A DNA stretch of 64,000 nt from Escherichia coli (GTDB taxonomy: Bacteria > Pseudomonadota > Gammaproteobacteria > Enterobacterales > Enterobacteriaceae), in the NCBI RefSeq assembly GCF_044324875.1, contig NZ_CP172185.1. One strand, 5' to 3'. Of this stretch, positions 5,845 to 7,300 are shown piece by piece. Both the position numbers and the translations under genes were made by a program. Under the pieces are notes generated by a model. It ran no database searches. It was not told where the DNA came from and saw only the letters and a list, made by a program, of their open reading frames with translations. The stretch's first letter is position 1; the number at the start of each line of letters is the position of its first letter.

Positions 5845-5990
5845 GAACAATAATCAGGTTGAGAGGACATCATAAGGCAAGTAGATTAACGGCAGATACT
5901 TTCCCGCAACCACGGGCAAGTATTTAATTATCCATGATGAAATATGACCTAAATTGTTTTTTGCCCGCCGGAAAGCGGGCATTTTTTTAT
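5845..5990 (+). repeat. Repeat unit A: sequence downstream of ogr ending in an intrinsic terminator (candidate phage right arm plus att core)
   Basis: Shares the core ggttgag...agtagattaac...ttatccatgat...gcccgcc-N-gcgggc-T7 with units B and C. Confidence 0.6.
5963..5988 (+). terminator. Intrinsic terminator, copy 1 (gcccgccggaaagcgggc + T7)
   Basis: GC stem-loop followed by a T-run on the plus strand. Confidence 0.75.
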
Positions 5991-6202
5991 TCTTTTGTGG
6001 TTATGGGGTCATCAGGAACCACGTGCAGATTATATTTTTGTTTTTTTGGCGTTCCTCCGGCAGCAACGAGTTCATCAATAAGACACTGACACGCCTGAAC
6101 ATCCCGGGCATGTCTTAGTTTCACCTTTATTGATTTAACCTTATCCTCACCGGAGGAGAAATGCAGTTCAATCTCAATATCGTTTCTTCGGAACAATCTC
6201 AT
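5987..6202 (-). CDS. Hypothetical small protein (71 aa) in an AT-rich islet
   Basis: ATG at 6202 preceded by a GGGGGG ribosome-binding site. AT-rich promoter-like sequence upstream, with TATAAT-like hexamers. No family recognised by eye. Confidence 0.45.
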   Translation of the reverse strand: MRLFRRNDIEIELHFSSGEDKVKSIKVKLRHARDVQACQCLIDELVAAGGTPKKQKYNLHVVPDDPITTKE

Positions 6203-6429
6203 ACGCCCCCCTGAATATATCAGAAATGCTAGTATCGAAAAATGAGAAAACAGTTAGACAGGAGAAACATATTAACACAAATCATTTATACCTATAGATG
6301 AAATTATAATTTCATTCATGAATATGATAGATAACTATATTGTGAACAAAATGAAAAATGGCTAAATTAAAAATGGGCATGGAGGAATGCCTCGTAATCA
6401 GTAATACATGATCCATACTTCCTTGTTTT

Positions 6430-6455
6430 GCCCGCCGGAAAGCGGGCATTTTTTT
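6430..6455 (+). terminator. Intrinsic terminator, copy 2 (hairpin identical to copy 1)
   Basis: gcccgccggaaagcgggc + T7. Together with copy 1 it forms a near-identical ~30-bp direct repeat flanking the AT-rich islet. Confidence 0.75.
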
Positions 6456-6657
6456 GGCGGTTACCATCGCCTCACCTTCCTGGTTCACACAAAGCAACCC
6501 TGATTTTCCATGAAAACTTCAGGGTTGAGCCAAAAGCACAAAGACAGTAGATTAACCAAGGGTACCCGCCACCTGCCAACAGGAACGGTATCCAGTACGT
6601 ATTAATGACTGACAATTCACATTGCTGTTTTGCCCGCCAGAAGGTGGGCATTTTTTT
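6456..6657 (+). repeat. Repeat unit B: paralogue of units A and C, ending in terminator copy 3
   Basis: Aligns by eye with unit C over about 200 bp. Contains a degenerate ogr 3'-end-like segment (ttcaca...gattttcc). Confidence 0.6.
6632..6657 (+). terminator. Intrinsic terminator, copy 3 (gcccgccagaaggtgggc + T7)
   Basis: GC stem-loop followed by a T-run. Confidence 0.7.
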
Positions 6658-6861
6658 GGCAGTTATCATGGACGCACCTTCATGACACATATTAAGCAGA
6701 CCTGATTTTTCCATGAAAAATTCATGGTTGAGACAAAAGCACAAAAACAGTAGATTAACCACGGGTGCCTGCCACCTGACAACAGGAAGGGGTGTCCATT
6801 ATCCATGATATACAAACGAAAAGTCTTGTCTTTTGCCCGCCGTTGCGCGGGCTTTTTTTTT
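6658..6861 (+). repeat. Repeat unit C: paralogue of units A and B, ending in terminator copy 4
   Basis: Same architecture as unit B. Confidence 0.6.
6835..6861 (+). terminator. Intrinsic terminator, copy 4 (gcccgccgttgcgcgggc + T9)
   Basis: GC stem-loop followed by a T-run. Confidence 0.7.
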
Positions 6862-6890
6862 GCCACCCTCACCAGTGAGGGTACCATCAT

Positions 6891-7112
6891 TCAGAGGCGC
6901 GTAAGCCACCCGGCGTTAACATCCTGCCCGTCAACCCTGACCGCAGAGTCTGAACGGCAGGCACCGGAAGCAGTACCAAAAACACCTCTGACAAGTTCCG
7001 CCACCTTCCCGATATCATCAGGCGCCACATTCCTCACCTCGACAGTGATCCGTGGCGTACCATCATCGTTAACAAGCGTGGCTTTAAGGCTGGTACGACG
7101 GGCAAATAACAT
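6891..7112 (-). CDS. Hypothetical small protein (73 aa)
   Basis: ATG at 7112 with an AGGGAGG ribosome-binding site about 9 nt upstream. GC-rich, between repeat unit C and the copA promoter. No family recognised. Confidence 0.45.
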   Translation of the reverse strand: MLFARRTSLKATLVNDDGTPRITVEVRNVAPDDIGKVAELVRGVFGTASGACRSDSAVRVDGQDVNAGWLTRL

Positions 7113-7172
7113 CAACACCCCCTCCCTTCGGTTCGTTGCACTGGCAGCACGATACCACCAGGAAAAAGAAAA

Positions 7173-7203
7173 GCCCACAACGTCAGGATTGCGGGCTTTT
7201 TTT
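7173..7203 (+). terminator. Intrinsic terminator, copy 5 (gcccacaacgtcaggattgcgggc + T7), related to copies 1-4
   Basis: Stem-loop followed by a T-run, directly upstream of the copA promoter. Confidence 0.65.
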
Positions 7204-7269
7204 CTTCAAAAATGGACACTACGTGGACACTGATTAAATAATCCTTTCTTAATCAGACTGTTAAAATGC

Positions 7270-7300
7270 TTGACCTTCCCCTTGCTGGAAGGTTTAACCT
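7270..7300 (+). promoter_or_regulatory. copA promoter with CueR (MerR-type) operator
   Basis: -35 TTGACC followed by the dyad CCTTCC-N7-GGAAGG within a long spacer, the known PcopA/CueR architecture. Confidence 0.8.

Follow-up and report, generated by a model that had tools for sequence, protein, structure and literature searches.

Sequence context of ORF73

The window, that is, the whole 64,000-nucleotide stretch of Escherichia coli DNA analysed here (contig NZ_CP172185.1 of assembly GCF_044324875.1), carries a short minus-strand reading frame, ORF73, between an array of repeats and the copA promoter. ORF73 occupies 6891-7112 (222 bp, 73 aa), and the ORF list holds it inside a GTG-extended 95-aa form at 6891-7178. 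The initial annotation had described it as a GC-rich orphan with a strong AGGGAGG ribosome-binding site, enclosed by two plus-oriented terminators at a point where the glsA-ybaT-cueR side of the copA promoter would normally begin in K-12. Much of this description stood up: the frame is present with the quoted translation, the Shine-Dalgarno sequence AGGGAGG lies on the minus strand at 7121-7127, 8 nt 5' of the ATG, and the GC content of ORF73 is 55-58% against 37-50% in the flanks. The AGGGAGG-N8-ATG arrangement, with its ideal spacing and strong ribosome-binding site, is kept in both alleles of ORF73 described below. Synteny with K-12 is indeed lost, at 7268/7269, where K-12 runs on towards glsA. 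Regarding the terminators, the left one (6835-6861, plus strand) is as described, while the right one, at 7173-7203, is present but bidirectional.

This right-hand intrinsic terminator spans 7169-7203 as a whole, has a 13-bp stem with T-runs on both strands, and abuts attP. The terminator scan reported it on the minus strand, which places a strong terminator directly upstream of ORF73 on ORF73's own strand. On the same strand, a consensus scan, of the kind that real promoters can escape, found no promoter-like site 5' of the frame in 7112-7210, and no terminator was found 3' of it. A perfect 7-bp hairpin (CCCTCAC-CA-GTGAGGG, 6866-6881) can be read just past the ORF73 stop and is seen in the folds of both strands, but since the minus strand has no T-run after the stop, it is not a canonical terminator for ORF73.

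The array to the left fills the interval from the end of ogr (5844) to 6861 and consists, at 5857-6861, of units of approximately 200 bp, all on the plus strand. A unit comprises a promoter-like GGTTGAGA-N17-TAGATTAAC (TTGAGA-N17-TAGATT; 5859, ~6525 and 6728), then approximately 95 nt and the terminator TTTTGCCCGCCGGAAAGCGGGCATTTTTTT (5959, 6426, 6628 and 6831). The units look like paralogous small-RNA genes. The array has no Rfam match and no annotation, and it occurs in only approximately 30 of 5,426 genomes. The intrinsic terminator of its last unit, at 6835-6861, forms the left boundary of the segment that holds ORF73.

A P2-family prophage in the copA promoter

The stretch 6860-7240 was found in 28 of 5,426 complete E. 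coli genomes, in 5 of them at no less than 99% identity and in 23 at approximately 91%, and a more sensitive search with 6880-7180 returned the same 23 genomes at 92.6-92.9% and no extra copies. In the cases examined, the block always lies at the ogr/attR end of a P2-family prophage, after gpD, ogr and a gene for a 71-aa hypothetical protein. It is found at three chromosomal sites, one upstream of copA and the others downstream of serS and of zapB. A complete prophage is present in strain LH50-c, whose sequence here is identical to that of the window, in the order glsA / attL, int, repressor, replication gene, portal, terminase, capsid, tail, gpD, ogr ... attR / copA. The att core was mapped by a three-way alignment of the attR of the window, the empty site of K-12 and the attL of LH50-c. 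The 20-bp core, CTTGACCTTCCCCTTGCTGG, occurs once in K-12, while the prophage has a copy at each of its ends, attL and attR; the attR copy, at 7269-7288, is the end of the prophage. ORF73 ends 157 bp inside attR, and since it lies within the boundaries set by the duplicated cores, it is phage DNA and not a resident gene.

The initial annotation had left two options, namely a resident small protein or another cargo gene of an integration hotspot, and had proposed a synteny comparison upstream of copA across E. coli genomes. This comparison shows the block to be prophage-borne and rare. The K-12 interval between copA and glsA contains no such block, and no identical gene lies upstream of copA in prophage-free strains. 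The first option is contradicted by this absence from K-12, by the small number of genomes with the block, and by its additional occurrence at serS and zapB. The second was right in that the block is accessory DNA in a prophage slot, but the supposed hotspot is one prophage with the copA promoter as its attB. This disposes of a false lead, that of an overlooked small protein native to E. coli beside copA, although the result matters little alone.

The prophage entered the copA promoter via Int-mediated recombination at the 20-bp core, which coincides with the -35 box of the copA promoter and the left half of the CueR operator (operator dyad 7273-7293). A by-product of this work is the finding that the copA promoter/CueR operator serves the phage as attB and is rebuilt on integration. 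The attB is the promoter itself (-35 TTGACC and the left CueR half-operator); at attR the copA promoter is restored, but all that precedes its -35 box is now phage DNA, and attL retains a second copy of the -35/half-operator. On the attL side in LH50-c (locus L008 7548-9773, outside the window), int and the repressor gene point to glsA-ybaT on the same strand. A literature search on P2-like integration at copA found nothing relevant. Among the integration sites given in the text of PMC3448106, copA, serS and zapB are unmentioned, and CTTGACCTTCCCCTTGCTGG is new relative to the sites named there.

The related phages at the other sites were also inspected. The core of the serS/zapB type, AAAAGCGCCCGCAGG, is the left half of the serS terminator, that is, half of a host terminator, and it is rebuilt at attR (loci of this phage type: L002 8414-8430, L003 ~8414, L013 and L014). 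An integrase with 99.7% identity is also found at the zapB terminator, where the core match is imperfect, so that zapB looks like a secondary site. The tail tape measure gene, in the left part of the window, is labelled by RefSeq as an incomplete pseudogene with a 'missing C-terminus' in all three prophage types examined (L001 1297-3072, L002 1-786 and L003 293-2062), which suggests an annotation problem or an insertion rather than independent decay.

The anatomy of attP could be read in some detail. Direct repeats of TGGACAC, 11 bp apart on the plus strand (7213-7219 and 7224-7230), mark its outer edge. In the attP reconstructed for both phage types, the int-side arm carries another such pair, equally spaced, at +113/+124. 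The text of Nilsson et al. (PMC3448106) gives tgTGGaCa as the consensus of P2-type arm sites, which flank the core in two or more copies per side. From their position, number, spacing and agreement with this consensus, we predict that the TGGACAC repeats of 7213-7230 are integrase arm sites, and as far as the text of that paper describes the P2 attP, both repeat pairs match it in sequence, number and layout. The difference from the P2 attP is that ORF73 stands outside the attP structure, past the outermost arm site. An AT-rich palindrome, TGATTAA-N11-TTAATCA (7231-7255), lies between the arm sites and the core; it is possibly a site for an accessory protein (IHF or Cox), and the serS-type attP has a comparable AT-rich palindrome. 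We also considered ORF73 as a part of attP and rejected this, as it lies outside the last arm site, and the DNA there is missing from an element of strain 33-6 that uses the same arm.

An exchangeable cargo slot between ogr and attP

The copA-type and serS/zapB-type phages differ in their cores and have integrases that are just 50% identical, yet their ORF73 blocks are still approximately 91-93% identical, and the homology of the block between them stops just past the arm sites. In 4 genomes, the backbone is 100% identical to the last T of the terminator at 6835-6861 and then diverges completely; the slot of these genomes carries a hicB-hicA operon on the minus strand (WP_029490553.1 / WP_029490554.1), and the prophage adjoins ihfA. 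At the copA site of strain 33-6, what the element has in common with the window is limited to arm sites, palindrome and core, and the homology begins exactly at the arm sites 7213-7230. The same block with different integrases, other cargo at the same site, and hicAB on the same backbone together show that 6862-~7210 is a discrete cargo cassette. This GC-rich, unique cassette of approximately 350 bp (6862-7210) holds only ORF73, its ribosome-binding site, the hairpin and the bidirectional terminator. Searches of phage and plasmid collections and of 100,044 species-representative genomes gave no match to the block, and the single copy in IMG/VR is the window allele. At the junction of ogr and attP, this rare P2 lineage has a defined slot for exchangeable DNA, in which the ORF73 block sits as prophage cargo; the existence of this slot with alternative payloads (ORF73, hicAB and others) is a further by-product of the analysis.

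Other occupants of the slot were recorded as well. The ihfA-site prophages (locus L017 3359-3959; L018) represent a fourth attB for this phage group, with hicA-hicB in the cargo slot, and the 33-6 element (locus L016 1976-3296) carries hok, a serine acetyltransferase gene and, on the minus strand, a 93-aa Cys-rich ORF with a signal peptide to the left of its arm sites.

Cassettes are probably swapped by homologous recombination between the conserved flanks, that is, the array terminator on the left and the attP arm sites on the right. ORF73 is best explained as the sole payload of a small 'moron'-type cassette that was brought in with the phage. Phage P2 itself is not known to carry cargo between ogr and the attP arm. 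The block resembles phage morons in being oriented against the late genes, bounded by terminators, and unlike its flanks in composition. It also lies in a prophage, is present or absent in near-identical relatives and has sharp boundaries, as do morons including those of P2-like phages, which according to the text of PMC3448106 carry strain-specific, horizontally acquired genes. It differs from morons in that ORF73 has no recognisable promoter, no own-strand terminator and no signs of selection on its product. Compared with the hicAB cassette of the sister prophages, ORF73 occupies the same slot on the same strand, with a 100% identical left flank, but it is single and partnerless, has no similarity to HicA or HicB, and has no match in PADLOC or Pfam.

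On the circular phage, int is followed, on its own strand and directly past attP, by the bidirectional terminator at 7169-7203, which probably ends the C-int transcript there. In the lysogen, the terminator that would follow int has been moved to attR, and this makes phage read-through into glsA conceivable. At the chromosomal junction, the terminator probably insulates the boundary between phage and host, but insulation is not a general requirement, since no comparable terminator stands beside the arm sites of the sister phages that carry hicAB or other cargo. The arrangement recalls sib/tI of phage lambda, an RNA element across attP from int which acts only on transcripts of the circular phage. 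Here, too, the terminator, followed by ORF73, comes directly after int and attP on the strand of int, so that a transcript of int could run into them in the circular phage but not in the lysogen. The analogy is one of position only.

Coding status of ORF73

The product of ORF73 had no significant match in NCBIfam, Pfam, PHROGs, PADLOC or the PDB sequences. A word-indexed search of 5.8 billion proteins returned four clusters, of which two are the alleles of ORF73 and two are frameshifted versions (P0003 and P0004). The latter were rejected as true variants and regarded as frameshift artefacts, as their source assemblies have ftsK and serS broken up as well. Exhaustive HMMER searching of 1.84 billion representatives yielded no true homologue and added only large repeat proteins. 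The giant repeat proteins P0005 and P0006 (E values of 2e-30 and 5e-17) were rejected, as their scores sum 15-20 near-identical matches of approximately 27 bits with 10/28 identity each, and P0006 resembles a translated DNA repeat. At the DNA level, no more divergent copies past the two alleles were found in E. coli, phages, plasmids, the 100,044 species-representative genomes or IMG/VR. The ORF73 product is an orphan with two alleles, found in E. coli only. The orphan status given in the initial annotation was borne out by these searches, although RefSeq already lists the protein as 'hypothetical protein' (WP_029400554.1 and WP_029490443.1) wherever the window allele occurs, that is, in 5 genomes; the commoner allele, in 23 genomes, is uncalled by RefSeq. 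ORF73 is at most an orphan prophage cargo ORF whose protein is already in the databases.

The two major alleles are 86% identical in protein and differ at 15 of 222 nt without indels, with 6, 4 and 5 changes at codon positions 1, 2 and 3, respectively. Five of these changes are synonymous and ten non-synonymous, giving a dN/dS of 0.67, as compared with 0.55-1.93 in the five other frames. In the same pair of phages, the tail tube gene has 14 synonymous and 2 non-synonymous changes (dN/dS 0.04) and gpD has 34 and 12 (dN/dS 0.10), and ORF73 differs from these two genes (Fisher p = 0.0018). Within the low power of 15 substitutions, neutrality was not rejected for ORF73 (p = 0.33), whereas an omega of 0.2 or less was rejected (p < 0.02). 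The sequence evolution of ORF73 is indistinguishable from neutral, but because there are only 15 substitutions, a fast-evolving real protein with an omega of 0.5-1 remains compatible with the data. More than 1,500 contigs, comprising three common haplotypes and recombinants, have the frame open, and broken frames occur only in assemblies with other genes fragmented, apart from one truncated form. As to whether a reading frame is conserved among homologous sequences, a point raised in the initial annotation, the frame is open in both alleles, but conservation by selection is not demonstrable.

Shuffles of the 312-bp block yield an ATG-initiated ORF of at least 73 aa in 6.4% of cases, so that the length of ORF73 alone is insignificant. 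Its codon score falls at the 2nd percentile of the real genes of the window and at the 98th percentile of off-frame windows, and the product is non-hydrophobic (GRAVY -0.07). Structure prediction, which had been suggested as a check, gave a single-sequence AF2 model with a pLDDT of 64.7 and a pTM of 0.46, as compared with 37.9 and 0.18 for one composition-matched shuffle. In the model, residues 7-29 form a beta-hairpin and residues 31-49 a helix, and the tail is disordered; fold searches returned nothing specific. Codons 10-42, the best-predicted core, carry 3 synonymous and 2 conservative non-synonymous changes as compared with 2 and 8 in the tails, a difference that is not significant.

In our estimate, the chances are even or slightly better that ORF73 is an unconstrained reading frame, that is, a decaying or a very young, nascent gene, and not a protein maintained by selection. 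Despite its good ribosome-binding site, such a frame would be shut off from transcription by the terminators around it, and its expression would be low. What is functional in the cassette would then most plausibly be the terminators, which would block phage read-out into copA and host read-in and, in the circular phage, would end the C-int transcript. The earlier designation as a cargo gene is correct for the location, but the status of a functional gene is not established, given the neutral-like substitutions, the lack of homologues beyond the two alleles and the lack of a promoter.

That ORF73 is a functional, translated protein at all has, in our judgement, a probability slightly short of even. 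A more specific version, which we regard as a realistic but tentative possibility, is a translated, fast-evolving cytoplasmic protein of approximately 8 kDa, with a beta-hairpin, an amphipathic helix and a disordered tail. It would act as an accessory gene in lysogenic conversion, defence or anti-defence, and be expressed from an unrecognised promoter or, on the circular phage, by C-int read-through of the upstream terminator. The conservation of the strong Shine-Dalgarno sequence and the ATG in both alleles and the open frame in all good assemblies agree with this version. Moreover, ORF73 fills its cassette, shares slot and orientation with hicAB and the secreted ORF of 33-6, which are real minus-strand genes, and follows int on the same strand in the circular phage. 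The AF2 confidence relative to the shuffle and the lower variation of the predicted folded core than of the tails point in the same direction, and an omega of 0.5-1, which the data allow, is typical for conflict-driven small phage proteins. However, the dN/dS is inseparable from neutral and from that of the other frames, codon usage is borderline, and no homologue past the two alleles and no family, defence-model or specific fold match was found. In addition, no promoter was found, and the strong own-strand terminator lies directly upstream. If ORF73 is nevertheless translated and active, it would represent a new family of small phage accessory proteins without relatives.

The product of the cassette could also be RNA or the DNA itself, that is, a plus-strand regulatory or antisense RNA of approximately 310 nt, or an insulator or spacer that shields attP and copA from read-through, but we consider this improbable. 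A promoter-like TTGCCA-16-TACCAT at 6860-6887 on the plus strand was picked up by a consensus scan, and together with the strong terminator at 7173-7203 it makes such an RNA, antisense to ORF73, possible; the second allele has a hexamer pair like it. A promoter-like site and a strong terminator are thus both seen on the plus strand and neither on the ORF strand, the block follows an array of plus-strand units resembling small-RNA genes, and the terminator is bidirectional and abuts attP, all of which would fit an RNA or an insulator. Against an RNA, folding was no better than that of shuffles (z of -1.85 and -1.68 for the two strands), there was no Rfam match (the best score was 26.9 bits against a threshold of 55, driven by a terminator hairpin), the promoter is a mere 9/12 match to the consensus, and two alleles give no power to detect covariation.

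We assign a still smaller probability to ORF73 being a rapidly evolving effector that is interchangeable with hicAB, either as a soluble toxin held by an antisense RNA, in a type I-like system of addiction or abortive infection, or as a small protein made only from the circular phage, when transcription of int reads on through attP. Soluble type I toxins with antisense RNA antitoxins are known from prophages, such as RalR/RalA of rac and SymE/SymR, and ORF73 would resemble them as a small non-membrane prophage ORF with a possible, fully overlapping antisense transcript. It has no homology to them, and the antisense transcript of the window is hypothetical.

Finally, ORF73 might be the relic of a larger known gene, namely a P2-family capsid gene, a HicB antitoxin gene, a copy of the neighbouring 71-aa gene or one repeat of a giant adhesin-like protein, but this was effectively refuted by direct comparisons and we attach almost no weight to it. 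The weak matches to Phage_cap_P2 (PF05125; i-E 0.18) and to the major head protein phrog_70 (E 0.25) arise via QDVNAGWL; they extend over approximately 25-30 residues, have only this 8-mer in common with the phage's own capsid, and are lost in the extended frame and in allele 2. The E values of 2e-30 and 5e-17 to repeat proteins, which would suggest such a repeat, reflect sums of approximately 20 near-identical weak matches. The presence of hicB in the same slot of sister phages had suggested a diverged HicB, but BLASTP against the HicB of the sister cassette gave E = 21 without an alignment, and there was no Pfam HicB match. The N-termini of ORF73 and the 71-aa protein are alike (MLFARR / MRLFRR), but in shuffling tests the N-terminal similarity had p = 0.26, and the best local match (p ~ 0.01) was in another register.

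The 71-aa gene itself, which follows ogr at 5987-6202 on the minus strand (WP_001236182.1), is 100% identical between phages whose other genes are 1-4% apart. Its product matches only the C-terminal half (72-127 of 128) of phrog_14142, a family of unknown function, and may therefore be a truncated form. Copies of its 5' part also occur, three in number, in the longer array of the serS-site prophage of strain DG342-2 (locus L002 4690-8470). This serS/zapB-type array extends over approximately 3.7 kb with nine terminator copies, and contains an annotated hok and an 81%-identical repeat of the hok-containing segment, as well as internal GTGGACA and AT-rich stretches like those of attP arms. The repeated modules and the arm-like stretches suggest that the array grew by serial accretion of att-proximal modules.
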